A stretch of 43,440 bases of DNA from Escherichia coli (GTDB lineage: Bacteria > Pseudomonadota > Gammaproteobacteria > Enterobacterales > Enterobacteriaceae). The stretch lies in NCBI RefSeq assembly GCF_003334255.1, contig NZ_QOWU01000048.1, one strand, 5' to 3'. Below the pieces are notes generated by a model that ran no database searches, had not been told where the DNA came from, and saw nothing but the letters and a program-made list of their open reading frames with translations. Position 1 is the first letter of the stretch, and each line of letters starts with the position of its first letter. The position numbers and the translations under genes were made by a program. Positions 51 through 40,509 of the stretch are shown here, piece after piece.

Positions 51-1361
51 CTAAATCAGTAAGTTGGCAGCATCACCTCCCTGTTTAAAATCATAATTTG
101 GTTGTTCTGTTCTTGAGTTATTAAGTAGAGTTCTTATCAGTGTTTGCCAAGCATGATTGATAAATTTATTTTCTGATTCTTTAAAATATCGTCTGATTAA
201 AGCACATAAATCTTCGACACTTTTCTGACGAGCGCTAGCTGCCCAACGGCCCCCTTCGGTTTGCACCATTGAACGTTGTACACTGTCTCCTAACTGAGCG
301 ATAAATTTCTGTTCATCGTCAAGTTGCATGTTTTCATTTATGATTAATTCATACAAAGCAAGAAAAACAGCTTGATAGTAACGAGGACATTCTTGAGATG
401 AAGATGCATTGCCCAGAATGTGTGATCTAAAGTTCAAATTATTTGCATCAAATAATTTTTGAATCATCTCATAAACGAAGAGGTAATTATTGACAATTTT
501 ATCTGCACCATTTGTCTGAATGTAATTCTCTAATTGAGTTCGTGTATGGATTGCATGACTCGTCGAACCTTCACCGTAAAATGTATCGAGCGATGTTGAT
601 CCTGATGTTGGCTTATCATCTAAAAATATATAGCCCAAGATATTTGCAACTAACTCTTCATCGTCAGAGTCTCTAATGCTAGGCCTACTAATGATATGAT
701 TTCTAATATAGAAATGATTGTCTATATTTATTCCATAATCGAGTCCATCATTGCAAATTGATATGTTATGTATTTTATTCAGTCCCATTATATCGCTATG
801 TGTAGTATCTCCTCTTATAATTGTCGATATTTTCCTTACTAACTCTGAAAAATTACTAACGCACCCCGCACTTCGTAGTTCTTGTTTTGATAAAATTTTA
901 CCATTGGAATTTATGCGTCGAAACACTTCGTCAATGTGGTCCTCTGTTGAAGAGTATTCAGATATAGCAAATCTATAGCGAGCAATTAATGTAGAACTTT
1001 CGCGGGATAGCACTGGCTCTTTTTGTTGAAGTTTACCACTGTCTTTTAGTTGTTTTGTTAATGCAATGGCATCTAAATTAAAGTATTTACCATTTAATGA
1101 AAATCGCTGCTCAATAAAACTCATTAAAGCTTCTAGTCTTTGCATTCCATCAAGGATTTCTCTTTTGTTGTCAATGGAAACAAACAATAGCAAAGGGATA
1201 GGGTATTGCTGAGTCATTGATGAAATCAGTGCTGTTTTCTCTTCGAGGGACCATACTAATTTTCTTTGGTATCTTCGATTTATAATTAATTTATCATCCA
1301 GATACCACTCGTATAATTCTTCTGCTGTCTTGGAGTCAATATCTAAGTTTTCATTAGCCAT
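51..1361 (-). CDS. DUF262 (ParB/Srx-like NTPase fold, GmrSD N-terminal-type) domain protein, 436 aa
   Basis: N-terminal 'RRYQRKLVW' and 'DGMQRLEAL' match the DUF262 signature (DGQQR-type motif). ATG start at 1361. Sits in an AT-rich block (1-1645) that contrasts with the GC-rich pem/rep backbone. No recognisable C-terminal HNH/DUF1524 motif seen. Confidence 0.6.
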   Translation of the reverse strand: MANENLDIDSKTAEELYEWYLDDKLIINRRYQRKLVWSLEEKTALISSMTQQYPIPLLLFVSIDNKREILDGMQRLEALMSFIEQRFSLNGKYFNLDAIALTKQLKDSGKLQQKEPVLSRESSTLIARYRFAISEYSSTEDHIDEVFRRINSNGKILSKQELRSAGCVSNFSELVRKISTIIRGDTTHSDIMGLNKIHNISICNDGLDYGINIDNHFYIRNHIISRPSIRDSDDEELVANILGYIFLDDKPTSGSTSLDTFYGEGSTSHAIHTRTQLENYIQTNGADKIVNNYLFVYEMIQKLFDANNLNFRSHILGNASSSQECPRYYQAVFLALYELIINENMQLDDEQKFIAQLGDSVQRSMVQTEGGRWAASARQKSVEDLCALIRRYFKESENKFINHAWQTLIRTLLNNSRTEQPNYDFKQGGDAANLLI

Positions 1362-1645: not shown

Positions 1646-1978
1646 TCAAGTCAGAATAGTGGACAGGCGGCCAAGAACTTCGTTCATGATAGTCTCCGGA
1701 ACCCGTTCGAGTCGTTTTCCGCCCCGTGCTTTCATATCAATTGTCCGGGGTTGATCGCAACGTACAACACCTGTGGTACGTATGCCAACACCATCCAACG
1801 ACACCGCAAAGCCGGCAGTGCGGGCAAAATTGCCTCCGCTGGTTACGGGCACAACAACAGGCAGGCGGGTCACGCGATTAAAGGCCGCCGGTGTGACAAT
1901 CAGCACCGGCCGCGTTCCCTGCTGCTCATGACCTGCGGTAGGATCAAGCGAGACAAGCCAGATTTCCCCTCTTTCCAT
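1646..1978 (-). CDS. pemK: PemK/Kid toxin (endoribonuclease), 110 aa
   Basis: Translation from the internal ATG (MERGEIWLVSLDPTAGHEQQGTRPVLIVTPAAFN...) is essentially identical to R100/R1 PemK/Kid as I remember it. The ORF-track start at 2110 is a TTG over-extension. Confidence 0.9.
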   Translation of the reverse strand: MERGEIWLVSLDPTAGHEQQGTRPVLIVTPAAFNRVTRLPVVVPVTSGGNFARTAGFAVSLDGVGIRTTGVVRCDQPRTIDMKARGGKRLERVPETIMNEVLGRLSTILT

Positions 1979-1979
1979 G

Positions 1980-2237
1980 TCAGATTTCCTCCTGACCAGT
2001 CGCCGGTGCATCCAGCCATTCTCGTTCTTCAGCTGATATTTCAGCATTCGGATCACACTGTGCCAGTAGCTCAGCCAGTGAATATTGCGGGCGTCTGTAC
2101 GGCTCAACAATCAGCCGGCCATTATCAATGACCATGCCAACTTCATTATCTGTGCCCAGAGACAGCGCATTCAGCAGTGCCGGTGGGACGGTCAGCATAA
2201 CTGAGCCGCCAACCCTCTTCAGTCGGGTGGTATGCAT
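1980..2237 (-). CDS. pemI: PemI/Kis antitoxin, 85 aa
   Basis: MHTTRLKRVGGSVMLTVPPALLNAL... matches PemI/Kis. Lies immediately upstream of pemK with the typical 1-2 nt stop/start junction. Confidence 0.9.
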   Translation of the reverse strand: MHTTRLKRVGGSVMLTVPPALLNALSLGTDNEVGMVIDNGRLIVEPYRRPQYSLAELLAQCDPNAEISAEEREWLDAPATGQEEI

Positions 2238-2329: not shown

Positions 2330-2983
2330 TCAACCAAACAGTAAACCCAGCGTGGTTGCTTCCATATGCAGCAATACCGGCAGCAGCAGGCCACCACTTC
2401 TGATCCTGGCCACTGATGTAATCAACCCCACCAGGAACAGTTCTGCCAGTGTCAGCAGGTTCTGATACTGGCTGTGCGCGGCGACGAACAACAACGACGT
2501 TATCAGCGCCCCCAGCCACATCGTCCAGCAGTACCGTGAACGGAAGACGTTCAGCATAATCCCCCGGAACAGCGTTTCCTCATTCAACGGGGCAAGGATA
2601 AAGATGGTCAGCAACGTCAGGATCACGTCAGGTATGGACTTATCGGCAAAAAGTTTCGTCATAAATGGCTCAGCAGGCAGAGCCAGCGCCTTACCGAGCA
2701 GAAATACACCGACATACACCACGGCCATCGCACCGACCAGCCACGGTACGCCAACGTTGCGCAGCTGACCAACGACCGGTAGCGGAGCTATCCAACGGCG
2801 GTATACCAGGAAAACACACAGCAGGTACATCAGAACAGTACCATGACTGAAGAACAAATAGTTTTTTCCTGATCCATAAAGCAGAACGGCCTGCTCCATG
2901 ACAAATCTGGCTCCCCAACTAATGCCCCATGCAGCCAGCATAACCAGCATAAACTGCAGATATTGATTACGTGTTTGAATCAT
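2330..2983 (-). CDS. CPBP-family intramembrane metalloprotease (CAAX protease/Abi-like), 217 aa
   Basis: Multi-pass hydrophobic protein with the CPBP motifs 'EETLFRG' (EExxxR) and 'FVAAHS' (FxxxH). ATG at 2983. Confidence 0.65.
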   Translation of the reverse strand: MIQTRNQYLQFMLVMLAAWGISWGARFVMEQAVLLYGSGKNYLFFSHGTVLMYLLCVFLVYRRWIAPLPVVGQLRNVGVPWLVGAMAVVYVGVFLLGKALALPAEPFMTKLFADKSIPDVILTLLTIFILAPLNEETLFRGIMLNVFRSRYCWTMWLGALITSLLFVAAHSQYQNLLTLAELFLVGLITSVARIRSGGLLLPVLLHMEATTLGLLFG

Positions 2984-3599
2984 TGCATCGCCTGTAAATT
3001 TTTAACTTGTCCTATTTTTGTCATTACCACGTATATACACATGTATAACAATTCAGATATCGTTACCAGGATATGCCGCATCAGCGGCATGGAAGGCGGC
3101 ACTCTGTTGTTTCATATGATACAGGAGTAAAACCGCCGAAGCCCGGCGTAAGCCGGTACTGATTGATAGATTTCACCTTACCCATCCCCAGCCCTGCCAG
3201 ACCATACCCGCTTTCAGCCATGAGAGAGCTTCTGTGCGCGGTCGGAGTGGTCCCGACGAGGGTTTACCCGAAGTCGGGGCGTATCTCCGCGTTAGCGGGC
3301 CGTGAGGGCCGCTTACGAGCGTGTACTGAGAACTTCCAGCGAGAAGACTGACAGCGATGAAGATGTAGTTACAACATTCATAATTAAAAGCGACTCTGTT
3401 CCGGCCCTTTGGGCCGGGGCGGGGCCGCTTTTCAGTTATGAGGGAGGGGCTTTGTGGTTTCGGTTCTGCGCTGGACCGGGGTTTTTCTGGAGGTTGTTTT
3501 TGTGTGTTGTAACTAAAGTGGCTCCGGTCGGGGCCCGCCGCTTGCGGTGGGAGGTGCATATCTGTCTGTCCACAGGACAGGCAGTGAATAGGTTTTCTT

Positions 3600-3920
3600 T
3601 TTAAATGAATGTAATTAAGTAGTTTAAAGGAGATATAAACAGGTGTTTAAAAGATACATTGCACCCTGTAAGACTGGCGGCTGGCGCTTTATGACATGAA
3701 CGGTTGTAACCTTATGGGGAAGTCCCTTGCAGTTAAATGTGGATAAGCAAAATTCCCCGTCGCTGAGGCGTATTTTGTATTAAAAACAGGGGGAATCGGA
3801 TGCTCCAGAAGGTGGATGATGAGATTGTTTTTTGCATGCGACGCTGTTTTTTTGTGCACCGGCGGGCTTCAGGCGTGCGGATGCCTCCGGCGCAGGCCGG
3901 ATTATTCTGAGGAGATCACT
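3600..3920. other. RepFIIA vegetative origin region (oriR) downstream of repA1
   Basis: AT-rich block directly 3' of repA1 containing a DnaA box (TGTGGATAA, complement of TTATCCACA) at about 3749-3757. Position matches the known IncFII replicon layout. Confidence 0.5.
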
Positions 3921-3921
3921 T

Positions 3922-4779
3922 TCAGGGAGAAGCTGTGGCCAGCCGGCTGTAATTGCGGTTACGTGACAGAATCATGCGCTCCTTCACACGACGCTCCACT
4001 TCGCGTTTTACCGCCTCACCATTAGCAGTGAAGCGTCCTTCCGAGATTTCACGCGTCAGCTGCCGTTTCACCAGGGTGACGATATCCTGACGTTCTCTGT
4101 TCGCATCACGACGCGCACGGGCACGTTTTATTCCACGGGACTTAAGCTCTGTCTGGTAACTGCGGAAACGCTCACGCACAAAACGCCAGGCTTTCGCTAT
4201 CAGCTCATCCATACCCAGGGTATCCAGCCCCTGCTTTTTGCGCTGTTTGTTTTCCCATTCAACACGACTGCGGCGCGCAGCTGCCACTGCATCCTCAGAC
4301 ACATCAAGGGCAGCAAACAGAGCCAGTGTGAACGTGATGTCGGTCGGAATGTAGCACCCGATAAGCGGGTCATATTCCGTCTGGTAGGTAATCAGTCCCA
4401 GCTCTGACAGGAACGTCAGGGCCCGGGTGGCACGGGTGATGGAGAGTTTTCCTGCACCGGACTCTGTCGCCAGTCCGCACTCAATGGCCAGTGTGGTGAT
4501 GGAACACTGGACGCGGTTGGCCAGCGGGTCATAGTGGAAACACAGCCCCTGCAGCAGCGCATCAATAGCCCGTCGACGCAGCACCGGTGGCATGCGCCGA
4601 CGCAGACCACGGGAACGGGCATGCGCCACATGAATGGCGAAATCAAAACGGGAGGTGAAGCCCACCGCCTTTTCCATCAGTTTTTCGCAGAACTTCAGCG
4701 TTCCGGCACCTTCACGGGGAGTGAACACCGGATTCGGGTTCTTTACCTGGCGGTAATACGTTTGGTGAAGATCAGTCAC
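3922..4779 (-). CDS. repA1: RepA1 replication initiator (IncFII/RepFIIA), 285 aa, GTG start
   Basis: Protein (V/M)[36 protein letters not shown]... matches R100/R1 RepA1 over its full length. GTG start at 4779..4777 is preceded by AGGA and overlapped by the tap stop codon. ORF-track start at 4791 is an over-extension. Confidence 0.9.
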
Positions 4780-4846
4780 ACCATCCTGCACTTACAATGC
4801 GCAGAAGGAGCGAGCACAGAAAGAAGTCTTGAACTTTTCCGGGCAT
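4772..4846 (-). CDS. tap: tap (repA6) leader peptide, 24 aa, translationally coupled to repA1
   Basis: Minus-strand translation from the ATG at 4846: [24 protein letters not shown], which matches the R1/R100 Tap peptide as I recall it. Its TGA lies just 3' of the repA1 GTG. Confidence 0.75.
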
Positions 4847-4869
4847 ATAACTATACTCCCCGCATAGCT

Positions 4870-4956
4870 GAATTGTTGGCTATACGGTTTAAGTGGGCCC
4901 CGGTAATCTTTTCGTACTCGCCAAAGTTGAAGAAGATTATCGGGGTTTTTGCTTTT
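4870..4956 (+). ncRNA. copA: CopA antisense RNA (copy-number control), approximate bounds
   Basis: Lies on the strand opposite the repA leader, between copB and tap. Imperfect long hairpin (CCCCGGTAATCTT...AAGATTATCGGGG) followed by TTTTTGCTTTT at about 4898-4956, as expected for the CopA terminator stem-loop. 5' end not determined. Confidence 0.5.
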
Positions 4957-5070
4957 CTGGCTCCTGTAAATCCACATCAGAACCAGTTCCTTGCCACCTT
5001 ACGGCGTGGCCAGCCACAAAATTCCTTAAACGATCAGTAATCTAGCATGCTACGCCACAAAGTAAAGTCT

Positions 5071-5331
5071 TTACTTTAGTATATCCAGTCTCTGCAGTTC
5101 ATCTTTGATGATTTTCTCAACGAACTGAGCCTGTGTTATCCCCTCTCTCTCGCAGTACTCAACCATGAGATCTTTCAGAGGATTTTTGACAAAAACTTTT
5201 ATCTCTTTGTGTGTAAGACGTTTTCTTGCAACAGCGGCCATTTGTTTCTCAGAGTCAGTCATAGGCTTACCTCTGCGCACAAACCGCTTTTGACTCAATG
5301 AGGAAGTCACTGCATTTTCTGTCTGCGACAT
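5071..5331 (-). CDS. repA2: RepA2/CopB transcriptional repressor of repA, 86 aa
   Basis: [39 protein letters not shown]... matches CopB. ATG at 5331 with a GAGGAGG RBS upstream. Confidence 0.9.
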
Positions 5332-5494
5332 CTCGCCTCCTCAATACTCAAACAGGGATCGTTTCGCAGAGGATACTACAGTTTTTTGAAATCAGCGACT
5401 TGAGAATTGTGACGAAGATCTGTGTTGGCGCACAAATCAACGGGGATTACTGTCGTTTAATGTGATTTAAACTGTGAAATAGTATGGTTTTCAG

Positions 5495-5577
5495 TTATGG
5501 AAACGCCGGGAGCGGGGAAAACTTGCTTTTTCCCGTTTCCGGGGTTGGACAACTGAGCAACGCGAAGGCGTCAGCTA
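5495..5577. repeat. Copy 1 of an ~80 bp hairpin-containing repeat (second copy at about 17475-17552)
   Basis: Shared blocks 'GGAAACGCCGGG' and 'CCGGGGTTGGACAAC.GAGCAA.GCGA.GGCGTCAG' flank a copy-specific hairpin. Lies between the DUF2726-like gene and repA2. Confidence 0.5.
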
Positions 5578-6161
5578 CGATGTTCCGGGGACTGCTGATC
5601 AGCCCCTGTTGTATTCAGCCATTCTCCGGTCATCTGCAGCAGTTTTCTGGCATCGTGGCTTCTGAGCAACGGAATACCAGCCTGCCTCAGAACCTCTTCC
5701 AGAAAAATATCCCGGCGTCTGCGTTCCGGTCGTAAATGTCTGGCATCATCCAGCTCTACTGCTGCAACAATACTGAACGAAAGCCGCTCAACGATAACCA
5801 CATCAACATGCCACTGAGACACCATCCTGAATAACTGCCACCACTGGCGTGATCGTGGCCGGATATTCCCGTTCAGCTGGACGATATCCGCGACCCGTAC
5901 CTGCGGACACAGATACCACCGCTTCATATCCACAATTCTGAACAGTCCTTTCATAAAACTGACTTCCCTTTCTGTCAGCAGCGTCTTCTGACGTTGCCAG
6001 TATTCACCGCCGGACAGTATTCGCTCTGCATCACCGGTCCGTATACCTGCCGCATGCAACTGCATCAGCAAAGGAGAATGCTGATTTACACTTCTGAGGA
6101 TAATCCGGATAAGTAACGCTGCAATAATCAGAACAATGAGAATAAAAATAATCAGCTTCAT
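5571..6161 (-). CDS. N-terminally membrane-anchored protein, probably DUF2726-type, 196 aa
   Basis: Hydrophobic N-terminus (MKLIIFILIVLIIAALLIRIIL) followed by a soluble domain. Occupies the position and has the size of the conserved IncF backbone gene next to the hha-like gene. Domain assignment is from memory, not motif-proven. Confidence 0.5.
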   Translation of the reverse strand: MKLIIFILIVLIIAALLIRIILRSVNQHSPLLMQLHAAGIRTGDAERILSGGEYWQRQKTLLTEREVSFMKGLFRIVDMKRWYLCPQVRVADIVQLNGNIRPRSRQWWQLFRMVSQWHVDVVIVERLSFSIVAAVELDDARHLRPERRRRDIFLEEVLRQAGIPLLRSHDARKLLQMTGEWLNTTGADQQSPEHRS

Positions 6162-7015: not shown

Positions 7016-7472
7016 TATAAAATCACGACTTAATACGGAAAAAACTCTGTGCTACTCAGAACTGTCCGGTCATACTTCCCGACCGGATATTAAAAAAAGC
7101 AAATCTCATGCATTATTCAGCCTTCTGAATCCCTGGAGTAATGAAGGCTGCTTTTTCGTTACACCCTTCCCCGGCAGCGCCGGTGGCAGTGTTCAGCCCT
7201 TTTTCGGGCAAACTGCTGCCAGTCTGTCCGGGGAGCAGACTGCGCAGCCCGTAGCCATGCCTCAGCGGCTCCCGGCCAGTCCCCCCTGACTTCCAGCCGG
7301 ACAGCCCGGCGTCCGACCTGCCGGTAGCGCCATACCCCGGAGTTTTGCGAATCACGCCCTGTTCCGTTCATTTTCCTTCCCCCTTTAATCCAGGCCGGTG
7401 AATGTGTTATAAATTTTTATAACCTTCTTCTGCCGGGTATGGAAGAAGGTTTCAGAGAAGCCTTATTTTTCC

Positions 7473-9847: not shown

Positions 9848-12800
9848 TCAGTCTCCGCCCAGGGTTTTCTCTTTCTGCAGGTCACGAACCATATCCCGCT
9901 CCATCTGCTGCAGACGCTCCTGCAGCAGATTTTCCCGGGCAACCTCCCGGACCGCTTCCCGCTCCCGTTGTGATTCACGCAGCACACTCTCCGGCAGTGC
10001 GGTTTCCCGTTCAGATATGGCAGACCGGTCACGCTCCTGTCCGGCAATATCCCTGACAGCCAGCTCTGTTTTGCCGTCCGGCAGGTCAGGTTTGTTCTCT
10101 GCCATTTTCCTGACAATTTCATCTGCGCGGCGTTCCGTTTCACGGCGGATGGCCTCTTCAGCCTGCCGCTGTGCCAGTACCTCTGCCGTGACCGGTTCGC
10201 CATTTCCGGCACCCGGCTGGACGCTGTTGTCCGGGATATCCCCCCACACGCGGCCACCGGTGATGGCACCGGGATTCCACGGGCGACCTTCACCGGCGAT
10301 TCTTACCACCACACCACTGTCAGGATTATCACGGGCAATCCGGACGCCATCCTGCATATTATCAGCCAGCAGGCTCTCTCCGTTACGGCTGCCCTGCAGG
10401 GCCACGAACTGCGCATCCCCGCTGCCTTTCACCCGTCCTTCACCACTGAATCCCCGCAGCCCGTTTCCGTCATCCGTGGTCAGTGGGTTCAGCCAGATAC
10501 CAGCTGACTTGCCGTTACGGTCAAACGCCGGCAGTGCCACATGCGGCTGCGGATATTTACGTCCCGGTGCAATAAACCGTGCAGGGCTGTCTCCCCCGGC
10601 CAGCCCTGCCTGACGGAGAACGGCACGGCCTGCCGCCACGTCCCGCAGTTCCCGTGCCGTACTGAACAGCCGCTGCGCATTCATGACCTCCCGGTCCGGT
10701 TTCGGCTCCAGCACATCGTGGGCAGTTCCTTTCTGTACGGCATTGTTAATGGCATCCGTCCAGCCCTGACGGTTATCGGTGTACACCTGCACATGCTGCT
10801 TCATACGCGACAGGGCCACGTAGGCTGACTCAAAGCCGGCCATCAGTTTCCGGTTACCTTCCGTGCCTTCAAGCGCGATGGCAAAGGTTTCACTCGCCCC
10901 CTGCGCACCGTGGGCGGTGATGGCATAAGCCAGGTCAATATGTTGCTCTGCCCGCTCCTGGCCGGGGCGAATCACCCGGGTCTGCTGTCCGTCTGACAGC
11001 GTGACACTGTCACCGGAAACCGCTGTCACCGTCCAGACGCTGTTGGCCACATAACCGCGCTCCCGGTCACTCTTCGTGAAGCGCATCCGGTCGCCGGTCC
11101 CCACCCGGATTTTGTCCGGGGTGTACAGTGTGACACCTTCAGCCACCGCCTCCCGGGGCGAAATCAGCCGCGTGTTACCTTCCGCATCCTCCAGGGTTAT
11201 CAGCCCGTCATCCTTGCTGATACCGGCAATCCGGTGATACACACTATCCACCAGGGCAAGGGCATCCGGGTTATTCTCCCAGGTGGAGAGACGACGCAGC
11301 TCCCCGTCACGTATATTCGCTGTGTTCAGGACAGGCACCATGACCTGCTCTTTCCCCAGCTCACCGGCCTTTTCCCGTGCATCATGAATCATGCTGTTCA
11401 GTACGCGCCGGTCCTCATTCAGGTGCGTGACAATCAGCGTCTGCTCCCGTGCTTCCGGTGTCCTGCCGGTATAGTCGCGGACAATGGCTTCATACAGTGT
11501 CATGGGGACATCCGGAAAAGTCTCACCTTTCAGCATCGCCTTCTGCTGCGCTTCTGCCAGTTTCGCTTCCTGGCTGTGACTGAACTCCGTCACGGAGTGC
11601 TCCGGTGCCCATGCGCCCTCCTGACGGGGAACCTGAGACGGTTTCACACTCTCAAGCCCGGACAGTGCCCTTTCCACATCCCGGTTAATCAGGCTGTATA
11701 CCGCCTCCCGCAGTTCCGGCGTCTGACGCACAATCTCCTTCATGATGACCACATCGGCAGCACTGCGCGTCTGCTGGAGACGGAAAGGCTGACCGGGCGC
11801 GATGGCCTGCAGCTGGTCCGTGTCACCACTGGCCACGGCACGACCGCCACCGGCCGCAATCAGGGCGTATGCCCGTGCCATGTCGGTATTGCCCACCATT
11901 GAGCTCTCATCGAGCAGGAACAGCGTGTTGCTGAAATCCGGCGTTTCTCCGCTGCGCTGCTGCAGCTGCGTGTCATGCAGAAAGGACGCCAGCGTCTGTG
12001 CATCCACGCCGGCGCTGCGCATCTCACCGACCGCACGGTGCGTGGGCCCCAGCCCCACAACTCGGGGACGCTCACTCGCCGGCAGCATGTTCACGGCTGA
12101 CATCACCGCCCGGAACTGTGTGGTCTTACCCACCCCGGCATACCCCTGCACCACCGTGAAACGGTCGGACGTTTCCAGTATCATGCGGGTGGCGGCACGC
12201 TGTCCTGATGTCAGTTTCTCCATGAGTTCGCCAGGTACTCTCTCCATCAGCGGCGTGACCGCCTCCTTACCTTCGAGAATATGGCGAAGAATACTTTTTT
12301 CTGCCTCATACGACGCACGGGAAACCAGCAGGCCTGTGCCATAGCCTTTTGCCACATCCACATACAGTAAGTCACCGCGTTTTATCTGCGCATTGATTTC
12401 CCCTCCCAGTTCAGTAAAACCGGTTCCTTCTGCAGCAAACGACTTCGCCTCTGTCAGCAGGTCCACCATGCTGAAGGCCAGGTTTTTACTTTCCAGCACA
12501 GGAAGGGCCAGATGAATGGCCTGCTGTGCCGGCGTGTGCAGCCCGGTTTTCTGCAGACTGATAGCGGTTTCCAGCGATGTCTCACCGGCCCGCGCCTTTA
12601 TCTGCTCAGAAACCACCGTAAAGGAGGGATGGCGGGCAAGTTTTTCCGCAGTACGGGTTTCATCCAGTGAGGAATACAGCCGGACATCACGACCGCTGCG
12701 GGCCAGACCGTTCAGGGTGGCGTTGTCCATTGCCATCTGTGTGACGGAGGCAAACACCGTCGCACTGTCACTGACGGAATGCCCGGGCGTTTCCACCCAG

Positions 12801-18841: not shown

Positions 18842-21663
18842 AATGGCCCCTTCAATCGTTCTTTCTTATCATCCACCATCTGTTTTAACGCATCTTCAGA
18901 CGGTGTTGGCATTAATTTCTGTCGTTTATTTTCTTCATTATATCTGTTGTTTTGTTGAATTTCTTCCTGTTTGTGATTATTTTTTAACTCTGAATATTGT
19001 CTGTCTACAATATTTTCTTCGCCATGAATACTATTCTGAGTATCTCCGATATTCCCTTTATATTCTGTGACCATATTATCAACCTGATGTTTTACATCAT
19101 TACGGATATTACTGTCCTGCGTTCTTTGATCAATAATGGCCTGATGCCCCTGATGGTCAGCAATAATATCCTGGCTGCCACCACCCGAAGGTACGCTCTC
19201 CATTCCTTTACCAATATCCCCACGGGATTCACGCCAGGCATTATCAACACCAGGCTGCACCTGTTCCTGAACAAAAGACCATGCCATCGCCCGACGGCGT
19301 TCTGCAATCTCCGGTGAACTGGTGTTTGTCAGAATAGCTTCGGCATCCTGCGGTGCGTGTTTCATCACATACTGTGCAAACTGTTGCGACAAATCTTCGC
19401 TCATCTGCCCACTCATGCTTTCAGTACGGGATGCCATTTCAGCATATTCATGGCTGCGGGTCATATTCGTCGTGTACTGGTCGTAACTCTGTTTCGCTGA
19501 GTTCAGGGCTGCAGACAACTGGTCCACGCGGGAATCGGCATTATTGTCAGTATGGCTGCCGGATTCACTGACTTTGCGACTGGTAAAGTAATCGCTGGCC
19601 TCTTTAAAGTCCTTACTGGCTTTAGCATCGATATCATGGCGAGCATCATGGGTAGCCCTGCTGCCACTACTTGCTGAATGTGAGTCATCATCCGTTGCAT
19701 CCAGGCTCCCCTTAAATCCACCTCTGATGCCTACCCCACCACCAACACCAAGAATTTTAGGTTTAACCCCCCATTCAGCATGAGCATCAGCATACATTCC
19801 ACCAGATAGCCTGGTACTTGTTGATGCCAGTTCCTGAGTCGCCTGCTCATTACTGATATTATGCGCCTTCGCATAGCTTTCCACTGCACTGCGCATACGG
19901 CTGGCCATCATGGAGTCCTGAGCACTCATCGTGCTGTCAGCACCACCGGTGACAGAATCACTGCTCCCCCGGTTAGAACCAAACTGACTGAGCGTGTTCC
20001 AGGCACTGGCAATACTGCTGCTGAACCCATGCAGGGCACTTTCTGCTCTGTTCGATGCTTCCCGGGCCATTTCCTGTTGTGCCGCCGCAATCTGACGCGT
20101 TGCATTGATACCGACCGGTAAACGGGACATCGCCCCGCTCGCATCCATCACCATATTACCGTCACGGGTCTGTGTGGCGGTTGCGCCACTGCCGGTCTGG
20201 TACATCATCTGACCAAACGACGTGGTGCTGTTGGTGCTCCAGCTGAAGCCGTTAACGTTCTCCGTCTGCATGTTGCCGTAGGAGTAATTACCGTCAACCA
20301 CACTGCCTGCTGCACTGGCGGTCGGGCTGATAGCAGAGGAAGCGAAATGGCTGTACACACTGGAAAATCCTGCCCCGAGCCCCCTGACCATCATCCAGGA
20401 TAATGGCGGGATCATCATGGAAAGATACCCGGCAGTGGAAGCCAGATCGGAGTATTTCAGCTGTATCTGTGAAATTTCCGAGAGCACCACCGGTGCACCA
20501 TTCTGCTTTGCATAAAATGTCATGGCGCTGTTCAGAATGGCGTACAACATTGGCCATGACTGCAACCACATCAGGGCAAACACATAGCCTTTCAGGACGG
20601 ACAGCGTCAGTTTGTTGAAGACAGCCGCCAGTACCAGGAGCGGGAAAATACCGATGGCGATCCCCGTCAGGATGGTCTGCGTCATGGGCAGTGTCCGCAT
20701 CGCCACATGACCGATGGAGACATGTGCCAGACGTTGCTTCTCCATCGATGATGTGGTGGCCAGATTCACCAGGCTGGCCGAATCACCATTACGTGCGGCA
20801 TAACTGGTGATCCCCTCCTTCAGCGCATTGATGGTGACATTCTGGCGGATGATCTGGCTGGCTGATTTACTTGAGCCATAGAAGTAACTGTAACTGTCGC
20901 CAATCAGCGTACTGAACAACAGGTTCGGATCAGGGCGTCCACCAAATAGCTGCTGGGCATAATAATGCCATGTTTTTCCGCCACTCTGTGTGTCCAGATT
21001 CAGCTTGTCTTTCAGCGAAACCGACGCGTCCTTACAGGTCACGAAATTATTATTGCTGTCATAAACGCCCCGCAGCGGACTGGGGCGGGAAAAAATCAGC
21101 GTGTAAGGATCAGCGGAGGCCATCAGTTCCTCCAGCGTGTATTTGTGGTTCAGGTAAATATCCCCCATCACGCAGTTCTGCACATAATCCTGGAAAAGAT
21201 TGGCGATTTCCGGATTACGGGACAAAAAGTCGGTGCTTTTTGATACCAGTTCTGCGCCAAACAGCATCCCCGTTTTGCTGTAGGTGACACTGTCCGGTTG
21301 CGTGAAGATCATCTCGTAACTGGCCACCATTGCATGCCCGATACGGGTCGTCAGTGAAAGTGGCATCGCCAGTCCGACCGGCACATTATCCACCCGGTGA
21401 ACTTTGACCAGGTCACTGTTATCAATAATCTGCACCGATGTGCGGACATTAACCAGCAGGCTGATAAGCACAAACACGGCCACCCAGCCCAGCAAATCCA
21501 TCACGTTGTGCCGCTGTACCCACATTACGGCCACCGCGAGAACAGACAATGTGAGCGCAATTTTTTCAATGGAATCCCACGTCCGGGTCCCCATAAAAGC
21601 GGCAATGGCATTCAGGTTATTCCGCAACCACTCACCACCGGCAATCACATAAACTTCATTCAC
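18838..21663 (-). CDS. traG: TraG mating-pair stabilisation/pilus assembly/entry exclusion protein, 941 aa
   Basis: Size, N-terminal polytopic region and large periplasmic C-terminal domain match F TraG (938 aa). Syntenic with traH and traS. Confidence 0.9.
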   Translation of the reverse strand: MNEVYVIAGGEWLRNNLNAIAAFMGTRTWDSIEKIALTLSVLAVAVMWVQRHNVMDLLGWVAVFVLISLLVNVRTSVQIIDNSDLVKVHRVDNVPVGLAMPLSLTTRIGHAMVASYEMIFTQPDSVTYSKTGMLFGAELVSKSTDFLSRNPEIANLFQDYVQNCVMGDIYLNHKYTLEELMASADPYTLIFSRPSPLRGVYDSNNNFVTCKDASVSLKDKLNLDTQSGGKTWHYYAQQLFGGRPDPNLLFSTLIGDSYSYFYGSSKSASQIIRQNVTINALKEGITSYAARNGDSASLVNLATTSSMEKQRLAHVSIGHVAMRTLPMTQTILTGIAIGIFPLLVLAAVFNKLTLSVLKGYVFALMWLQSWPMLYAILNSAMTFYAKQNGAPVVLSEISQIQLKYSDLASTAGYLSMMIPPLSWMMVRGLGAGFSSVYSHFASSAISPTASAAGSVVDGNYSYGNMQTENVNGFSWSTNSTTSFGQMMYQTGSGATATQTRDGNMVMDASGAMSRLPVGINATRQIAAAQQEMAREASNRAESALHGFSSSIASAWNTLSQFGSNRGSSDSVTGGADSTMSAQDSMMASRMRSAVESYAKAHNISNEQATQELASTSTRLSGGMYADAHAEWGVKPKILGVGGGVGIRGGFKGSLDATDDDSHSASSGSRATHDARHDIDAKASKDFKEASDYFTSRKVSESGSHTDNNADSRVDQLSAALNSAKQSYDQYTTNMTRSHEYAEMASRTESMSGQMSEDLSQQFAQYVMKHAPQDAEAILTNTSSPEIAERRRAMAWSFVQEQVQPGVDNAWRESRGDIGKGMESVPSGGGSQDIIADHQGHQAIIDQRTQDSNIRNDVKHQVDNMVTEYKGNIGDTQNSIHGEENIVDRQYSELKNNHKQEEIQQNNRYNEENKRQKLMPTPSEDALKQMVDDKKERLKGPL

Positions 21664-39632: not shown

Positions 39633-40319
39633 TTACTTAACGCTATAAAATTCACGAATTATATTTAATAGCGAATCTATTTCCCCTTTATAGATACATG
39701 ACACTCTGAATAAATCAAAGTGTTCAAAAAATTCTTTTATTTTCCGTTTAACTGGTTTAATTCGATCCTCAGATGCTCTGTCTGTAATACCCAATTCTCT
39801 GGCAATTGTTGCATGACCAACACCCAGCATATAAAAAGAGAAAACAAGCAATGTCCCGGGGGAAAGATCATTCCATATCGTTAATTTGTCAGAAGTATTT
39901 GTATTACTTCCACTCTGATTTAACGCAAAAAATGGATAATCAGGAAACGGATTAATTTGCCATAAAACAACAGATTCGTCATTATAAAAAGAAACATTCT
40001 CCATCCTTATCTGATAGATTTCGCCATGAAAATTAAAACGACGACAAAATGCAGAGCCATGTCCAAGAGCCTGGCATTCCAGTTCAAGTGATGAAAGAAA
40101 AATTTCAACCTGCAGACGTATATAACTCTCTCCGGATAAGGGTTTATCTTCTCTGGAAAAGAGTTCAATAAAAGCCCCATTGGCATAAAGGATTTTCCGG
40201 TTTTTGTTACGGACACAAACCGGAACGGGAGAATTTCTGTAGATATTCTGAACGTTAAGGATGTATTTATTTACAGATTGACTGTTAAGTGGCCTTTCTC
40301 TACGATCCAGCGCACACAT
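39633..40319 (-). CDS. traJ: TraJ transcriptional activator of the tra operon, about 228 aa
   Basis: Start trimmed to the ATG at 40319 ([14 protein letters not shown]...), which has a GGAGG RBS at 5-nt spacing. C-terminal helix-turn-helix-like segment '[20 protein letters not shown]'. ORF-track start at 40379 runs into the finP/leader region. Confidence 0.8.
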
Positions 40320-40395
40320 AGGAACCTCCGTTAAGGATTCTATGGACAGTCGATGCAGGGAGGTCTGAACTCCCTGCATCGGCGATTTTCAGTTT
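40320..40395 (+). ncRNA. finP: FinP antisense RNA (approximate), complementary to the traJ leader
   Basis: Plus-strand perfect hairpin CGATGCAGGGAG-gtctgaa-CTCCCTGCATCG at about 40350-40381, followed by GCGATTTTC. Overlies the traJ RBS region on the opposite strand. Ends not mapped. Confidence 0.45.
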
Positions 40396-40509
40396 CAATT
40401 TTTAACGTGGCATTAACCACGTAATTAATATACTAATTATCTGACGTATTGTCATCTTTTTGAATCATAAAAATTCTTATATTTGAACCAACTCAAACTT
40501 CATTTTCAT

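Follow-up and report, generated by a model that had tools for sequence, protein, structure and literature searches.

Among the known systems, those closest to the locus reported here include the basic replicons of the plasmids R1 and R100. The R1 replicon consists of copB, copA, tap, repA and oriR1, and its CopB has 86 amino acids. In the R1 circuit the translation of repA is coupled to the translation of tap, and CopA inhibits tap translation and thereby the synthesis of RepA (PMC5717011, PMC12779154). CopB represses the promoter PrepA (PMC5717011), and the origin oriR1 has a size of 188 bp (PMC5883639). R100 (NC_002134.1) carries repA2, RNA-E/copA, repA6/tap, repA1 and ori; it is typed F2:A-:B-, and the plasmids pEC_L8, pEC_L46 and pEC958 are typed F2:A1:B- (PMC4398462). 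TraDIS done with pEC958 showed that copA, repA6 (tap), repA1, repA4 and oriV are required for the maintenance of the plasmid (PMC4398462).

Here we describe the computational analysis of one locus in a stretch of Escherichia coli DNA of 43,440 nucleotides (NZ_QOWU01000048.1), which as a whole we call the window. With a probability of about 95% this locus, situated on the minus strand, is a basic replicon of the RepFIIA type from an F-like conjugative plasmid, and its leader is that of R100/NR1 (pMLST FII allele 2). The architecture of the locus is like that of R1, and its mechanism appears to be alike as well. The original prediction for this DNA had placed a complete IncFII copy-control module at 4772-4956, made up of CopA, tap and a GTG-started repA1.

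Results

All three elements of the predicted module were found in the list of open reading frames, in Rfam and in the RefSeq annotation of identical plasmids. The interval 4772..4956 is exactly tap plus copA. The word complete fits it only in part: tap, CopA and the repA1 GTG are indeed inside 4772..4956, but copB, the operator, the PrepA promoter and oriR are situated outside. All parts of the module except copA are read on the minus strand, and copA is read on the plus strand.

The alignment to the leader and copA of R100, which had been proposed as a check, revealed zero differences in tap, in CopA/CopT and in the junction, and neither tap nor the CopA hairpin, the two parts on whose intactness the original prediction depended, is disrupted. 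There is no difference to R100 over the whole of 5046..4740, and the PrepA -10, CopT/CopA, tap and the repA start are identical in the two sequences. The gene order is also the same as in R100: hha, DUF2726, copB, tap, repA, ori, CPBP (tir), pemIK and DUF262. The leader (5046..4772, 275 bp) is an exact substring of R100, pEC958, pEC_L8 and pH1038-142, and so is the 261-bp FII typing amplicon (5037..4777). This amplicon is bounded by the sites of the FII typing primers. As the amplicon is identical to that of F2-typed plasmids, the typing by sequence comparison that had been suggested assigns the replicon to allele FII-2.

The megablast search with 5500..3300 against PLSDB matched at least 5000 plasmid records. 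Among the matches listed, at least 192 records are at least 99% identical, and at least 25 complete plasmids, pEC_L8 and pEC_L46 included, are 100% identical over all 2201 bases. pEC_L8, pEC_L46, pH1038-142 and other F2 plasmids of E. coli from the CTX-M era share all of the 2.2-kb replicon with an identity of 100%, and the copB allele is included in this. With the leader exact in R100 and this number of matching plasmid records, a chance match is excluded.

The leader peptide gene tap (= repA6; 24 codons) occupies 4772..4846 on the minus strand, as given by the list of open reading frames, RefSeq and TIGR03475. Its product is WP_001365705.1, which RefSeq labels 'RepA leader peptide Tap' in the identical plasmids and which is also the accession of Tap in R100, and it passes the NCBIfam equivalog TIGR03475 with 60.6 bits (cut-off 35.05, E 1.3e-16). 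The replication initiator gene repA1 is GTG-started, encodes 285 amino acids and occupies 3922..4779 on the minus strand. In the identical plasmids its product is WP_000130647.1, which RefSeq labels 'incFII family plasmid replication initiator RepA' and places at 4779..3922. RepA passes the NCBIfam equivalog TIGR03474 with 581.5 bits (cut-off 446.9), its residues 9-283 being aligned to positions 1-275 of the 275 in the profile. When compared to R100 RepA, it differs in 7 residues (278/285 identical).

The two genes overlap by 8 nt with the sequence GTGACTGA, in which 4779-4777 is the GTG of repA and 4774-4772 is the TGA with which tap stops. The end of tap is therefore 2 nt past the repA start codon, the coupling layout that had been read from the sequence beforehand. 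The junction on the minus strand reads GCAGGAUGGUGUGACUGAUC and harbors an AGGA Shine-Dalgarno sequence at 4787..4784, 4 nt before GTG 4779. For a comparison of alleles, 13 diverged FII alleles, in which the identity of the leader is 89-97%, were aligned with the window and R100, giving 15 sequences. The tap gene has 24 codons in 15 of these 15 sequences (14 distinct alleles), and its stop is placed 2 nt after the GTG in 14 of them; the exception is pVir_020022, with TGA changed to TAA and Asp24 changed to Gly.

The ORF finder called repA as 3922..4791 (minus strand, 289 amino acids), from a GTG that precedes the RefSeq start by four codons, since it takes the first start that is in frame. The original prediction had already pointed to this four-codon extension, and we agree that it is an artefact of the ORF finder: RefSeq starts the gene at 4779, and no Shine-Dalgarno sequence precedes 4791. 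The primer used for cloning of R1 repA begins with GTGACTGATCTT (PMC5883639). An R1 primer from the repA codon region matches the window at 23/23 positions (PMC5883639); codon 5 is CAA in the R1 repA primer versus CAC in the window. Taken together, the Shine-Dalgarno sequence, RefSeq, the R1 primer and the coupling geometry identify GTG 4779 as the start of repA1, as far as a start can be read from sequence.

The 3' half of tap contains a predicted RNA hairpin (4777..4812, minus strand), in which the repA Shine-Dalgarno sequence (AGGA 4787..4784) and the GUG (4779..4777) are paired. The MFE fold and the centroid fold both contain this hairpin, and as an isolated 42-nt fold it has -18 kcal/mol with a z of -3.4; the whole 116-nt tap/repA junction folds no better than its shuffles (z -0.4). 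Across 7 distinct alleles the cells of the hairpin are 100% paired, versus 24-62% after sliding of the partners. Variation among these alleles affects three pairs, and all 3 changes are compatible and one-sided, with no double compensations in the 7 alleles. The comparative support for the hairpin is weak, because most of the stem positions are invariant and the region also codes for Tap. A hairpin that sequesters the ribosome-binding site, as modeled here, is consistent with the tap-dependent translation of repA.

The Rfam search of the whole window gave a match to RF00042 at 4864..4954 on the plus strand (106.3 bits, gathering score 60, E 1.7e-19, model positions 1-92 of 92). On the basis of this match and of the fold, the copA antisense RNA of about 90 nt was delimited to 4864..4956 on the plus strand, and the complement of the match (4864..4954, minus strand) is CopT, the target of CopA in the repA mRNA leader. 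CopA is composed of stem-loop I (4864..4883) and stem-loop II (approximately 4891..4951), and the loop motif CGCCAA at 4919..4924 is the same in all of 13 distinct alleles. After stem-loop II there is a T-run at 4953..4956, and the corresponding U-run probably acts as the terminator tail of CopA. The CopA fold has -35.9 kcal/mol with a z of -4.2. The putative RNA thus combines a full-length Rfam match, two stem-loops with CGCCAA and a U-run, and the antisense position; with the RF00042 match and with stem-loop II and its U-tail intact, the CopA hairpin claimed to lie antisense in the leader is confirmed.

A promoter-like site for copA, TTGAAC-17-TATACT (PcopA; 4829..4857, plus strand), was reported by the promoter scan with a 9/12 match. 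Between the end of this site and the 5' end of CopA there are 6 nt, and the strand opposite to the site is tap coding sequence; both of its hexamers are in columns that are invariant across the 15 aligned sequences. The tap Shine-Dalgarno sequence GGGGAG (4861..4856) follows 2 nt downstream of CopT.

Among the alleles, CopA varies only in stem-loop I and in the upper stem and loop of stem-loop II, with CGCCAA and the lower stem II invariant, which is the pattern that would be expected for an incompatibility determinant. The RNAalifold analysis of 13 CopA alleles gave a covariation term of -0.63 with one compensated pair, in stem I; the lower stem II does not vary among these 13 alleles, and its upper part and the loop vary too much for an alignment. 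Since the covariation is almost nil, the support for the CopA structure comes mainly from the Rfam model.

The list of open reading frames also offers an ATG-started frame of 61 amino acids across CopT (4792..4977, minus strand). When this frame is read from the homologous ATG 4977, it is cut to 16-41 amino acids in 10 of the 13 diverged alleles as a result of indels in the CopA loop region. It stays at 60-61 amino acids in R100, of which the leader is identical, in pRHB18-C09_2 and in pCTXM15_005784. The frame has no match among NCBIfam families, and it is absent from the annotation of the RefSeq records examined. With these truncations, no family and no RefSeq annotation, the earlier verdict that this open reading frame is spurious stands. 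Judging from the alleles, the evolution of the CopA loop region is that of an RNA specificity determinant rather than that of a coding sequence.

The gene copB (= repA2; 5071..5331, minus strand) encodes a transcriptional repressor of the repA promoter with 86 amino acids and is situated immediately upstream of the repA leader. It was identified from the list of open reading frames, from RefSeq, where in identical plasmids its product WP_000083819.1 is named 'replication regulatory protein RepA', and from the NCBIfam family NF010256, which it passes with 138.8 bits (cut-off 87). A perfect palindrome, AAAGTAAAG-A-CTTTACTTT (5059..5077), with arms of 9 nt that are 100% complementary and 1 nt apart, shares bases both with the copB stop codon and with the candidate PrepA -35. 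From this position and from the published repression of PrepA by CopB we infer that the palindrome is the candidate CopB operator. The candidate PrepA promoter (5039..5067, minus strand) was found by eye, with CTTTAC/TTTACT as the -35 (5067..5061) and TAGATT as the -10 (5044..5039); the assignment is a putative one, with an 8/12 consensus match. The promoter scan of 3300..5600 reported only PcopA, PrepA being below the threshold and PcopB not being located in this range.

It is in this part of the replicon that the locus departs from R100. The homology to R100 begins at about 5047, between the PrepA -35/operator and the -10, and the R100 sequence up to the PrepA -35 is a different cassette from that of the window. 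R100 RepA2 has 84 amino acids versus 86 in the CopB of the window, and the two proteins diverge strongly after residue 11. Read from the alignment, copB is here a non-R100 allele and the product of a cassette swap with the breakpoint near 5047. A 24-nt primer for R1 copB (PMC5883639), R1 being compared by primers only, matches at 24/24 positions (5209..5232). These data suggest that an R1-type repressor/operator cassette was joined to an R100-type leader. An exchange of cassettes near 5047 is common, since the copB genes in the other sampled alleles differ in length (249, 255, 258 or 261 bp).

Downstream of repA there is an exact consensus DnaA box, TTATCCACA (3746..3738), with an AT-rich stretch behind it. 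This order of elements, a consensus DnaA box and then a region that binds RepA and is AT-rich on the 3' side of repA, is the one by which an IncFII oriR would be recognized. The putative oriR region was placed at 3559..3746 on the minus strand; its boundaries are inferred from the DnaA box and from the size of oriR1, and the extent assumes that both origins are equally long. The R1 primer covering the context of DnaA-box1 matches the window at 30/31 positions (PMC5883639). From repA through ori the window is 95-96% identical to R100; the interval from repA to ori is 96% identical and is nearly invariant from the DnaA box onward.

Discussion

Our data imply that the replicon and its control circuit are already known: the control leader is base-identical to that of the textbook plasmid R100, and as a replicon the locus is ordinary. 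The mechanism would be the established one of R1/R100; the anatomy is seen in the window, and the function is ascribed to it by analogy. Two promoters would give rise to repA mRNA, a constitutive one upstream of copB and PrepA, of which CopB would repress PrepA at the palindrome 5077..5059. Direct entry of ribosomes at the repA GUG 4779 would be blocked by the hairpin 4812..4777, which pairs the Shine-Dalgarno sequence and the start codon. The translation of tap would open this hairpin, and termination 2 nt past the GUG would lead to coupled initiation of repA. CopA, an antisense RNA that is unstable and about 90 nt long, would be transcribed from PcopA (4829..4857, plus strand); its level would be proportional to the copy number, and it would kiss the CopT stem-loop via its CGCCAA loop. 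The resulting CopA/CopT duplex would end 2 nt upstream of the tap Shine-Dalgarno sequence, and tap translation, hence the synthesis of RepA, would be blocked. RepA itself would act downstream at oriR (DnaA box 3746..3738).

The replicon is very likely functional, a judgement drawn from its intactness and from the identical copies in complete plasmids. The notion of a defective remnant was considered and rejected, with no lesion in any part of the replicon. One would argue that an intact replicon can still be a passenger if its IncF plasmid has several replicons and is driven by one outside the window: FIA, IncN or other replicons are found next to this exact replicon in many plasmids, and the plasmid is seen only in part in the window. 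However, in pEC958, a multi-replicon plasmid with an identical leader, TraDIS found RepFII to be required and RepFIA to be dispensable (PMC4398462), evidence that transfers strictly only to the leader, since CopB and RepA of pEC958 are R100-type, unlike those of the window. Additionally, the plasmid CP077246.1 (64 kb) contains the identical 2.2 kb as its single PLSDB replicon, with the same label as that of R100, and the replicon parts in the window are free of lesions. Thus it is very improbable that the replicon is a mere passenger, and we keep to the reading of a RepFIIA basic replicon that probably serves its own plasmid.

Two further alternatives concern the translation of the leader. If repA1 started at the upstream GTG 4791, the protein would have 289 amino acids; the frame is open from this codon, and the codon is present in 15 of the 15 aligned sequences. 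Its conservation, however, is explained by its position inside the tap coding sequence and in the 3' arm of the hairpin. The bases before 4791 (CUGCGCAUUGUAA) lack a purine-rich Shine-Dalgarno sequence, whereas AGGA stands 4 nt before 4779; the start is 4779 in every RefSeq record examined, the primer for cloning of repA from R1 has its start at GTGACTGATCTT (PMC5883639), and the tap stop 2 nt past 4779 provides the coupling geometry. The start at 4791 is for these reasons very improbable, and 4779 is retained. The other alternative is that the 61-amino acid frame 4977..4792 is a translated gene, and that its translation through CopT modulates the pairing of CopA and CopT. This frame begins with ATG, extends across CopT and is uninterrupted in R100, pRHB18-C09_2 and pCTXM15_005784. 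By its position across CopT and its size of about 7 kDa it is presumably the historical '7k' reading frame of R1, for which such a role was reportedly proposed by Wagner in 1987. Against this stand the stops and frameshifts that shorten the frame in 10 of the 13 diverged alleles, with tap intact in all of them, as well as the lack of an NCBIfam family and of RefSeq annotation in the records examined; later reviews, moreover, credit the control to tap alone (PMC5717011, PMC12779154). We give the translated frame as little weight as the upstream start of repA1. A bolder idea is that the '7k' frame is translated in F2-type alleles and modulates CopA/CopT in an allele-specific manner, and that, separately, the R1-type copB/operator together with the R100-type leader confers a copy-number set-point of its own; from the sequence we would rate it about as improbable as the passenger role.

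The value of these findings is limited to annotation and typing, and they hold no new lesson on replication control. For annotation, the start of repA1 is to be fixed at GTG 4779, and neither the 61-amino acid open reading frame nor any 'CopA protein' coding sequence on the opposite strand is to be annotated. For epidemiological placing, FII allele 2 indicates an R100-like backbone, which is common among CTX-M-15 and ST131-associated IncF plasmids. The surroundings of the identical replicons are not the same as those in the window: pH1038-142 has a copy of ISVsa5 between pemK and the DUF262 gene, where the window is without ISVsa5, and in pEC_L8 the flanking cargo differs from that of the window, with Tn2/TEM-1 downstream of ori.

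Discussion

The minus-strand stretch 5047..5331 of the window, running from copB up to the -35 element of the candidate repA promoter PrepA, is a cassette other than that of R100, whereas downstream of about position 5046 on the same strand the window and R100 are identical. CopB has 86 aa in the window and 84 aa in R100, the two sequences parting after residue 11, and the 24-nt copB primer of R1 matches the window's copB exactly. Because the copB genes of other FII alleles vary as well (249-261 bp), recombination with its breakpoint past the repressor/operator and before the PrepA -10 element appears to be common.

A different arrangement of the tap/repA junction is seen in a group of FIB/FIC plasmids, which carry about 475-495 bp after the repA start region that are missing from the window; the group comprises pVir_020022 (NZ_CP032891.1; 667..1149 of L016, its diverged FII allele) and also the matches H62 and H66-H70. 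Here a 160-aa 'hypothetical protein' ORF overlaps tap instead, with the same 8-nt coupling arrangement, and the match to the window's repA picks up again only past this ORF. The 160-aa protein is 33% identical over 98 aa to the central region of RepA (E 6e-07).

In several public records for this region the CopA strand bears an annotated protein CDS, under the names 'plasmid copy control protein CopA', 'protein CopA/IncA' or 'replication protein RepA' (for example, WP_231819095.1 in pETEC_74). These CDSs look like an RNA gene mistaken for a protein gene. The window holds a comparable 50-aa ORF with a GTG start at 4893..5045 (+), which should be left unannotated. As to replicon labels, the replicon of R100, the IncFII prototype, is called 'IncFIA' in PLSDB/MOB-suite, and so are those of many plasmids that carry this replicon; these labels cannot be used as Inc groups.

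Just past the origin, a G+C-rich stretch contains an overlapping pair of ORFs of 100-128 aa, at 3173..3559 (-) and 3302..3604 (+). It is the repA4 region of R100 nomenclature, which is reported to be needed for stability (PMC4398462). The annotation of a plasmid with the identical replicon gives only one 46-aa hypothetical protein in this region. Further downstream of the origin the gene order is that of R100: on the minus strand, a gene for a CPBP-family membrane protease ('tir' in R100 nomenclature; 2983..2330) is followed by pemI (2237..1980), pemK (about 1978..1646) and, last, a DUF262 gene (1361..51). The closest overall match of the window, pH1038-142, has a copy of ISVsa5 between pemK and the DUF262 gene, whereas the window lacks it there.

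Rfam matches above the gathering score to AS-pc02 (7079..7262, +; 229.5 bits), AS-traI (12193..12269, +), AS-traG (20859..20944, +) and the FinP/traJ 5' UTR pair (40313..40422, both strands) show that the minus strand holds a complete F-like tra region, extending from about 40.4 kb down toward the replicon.
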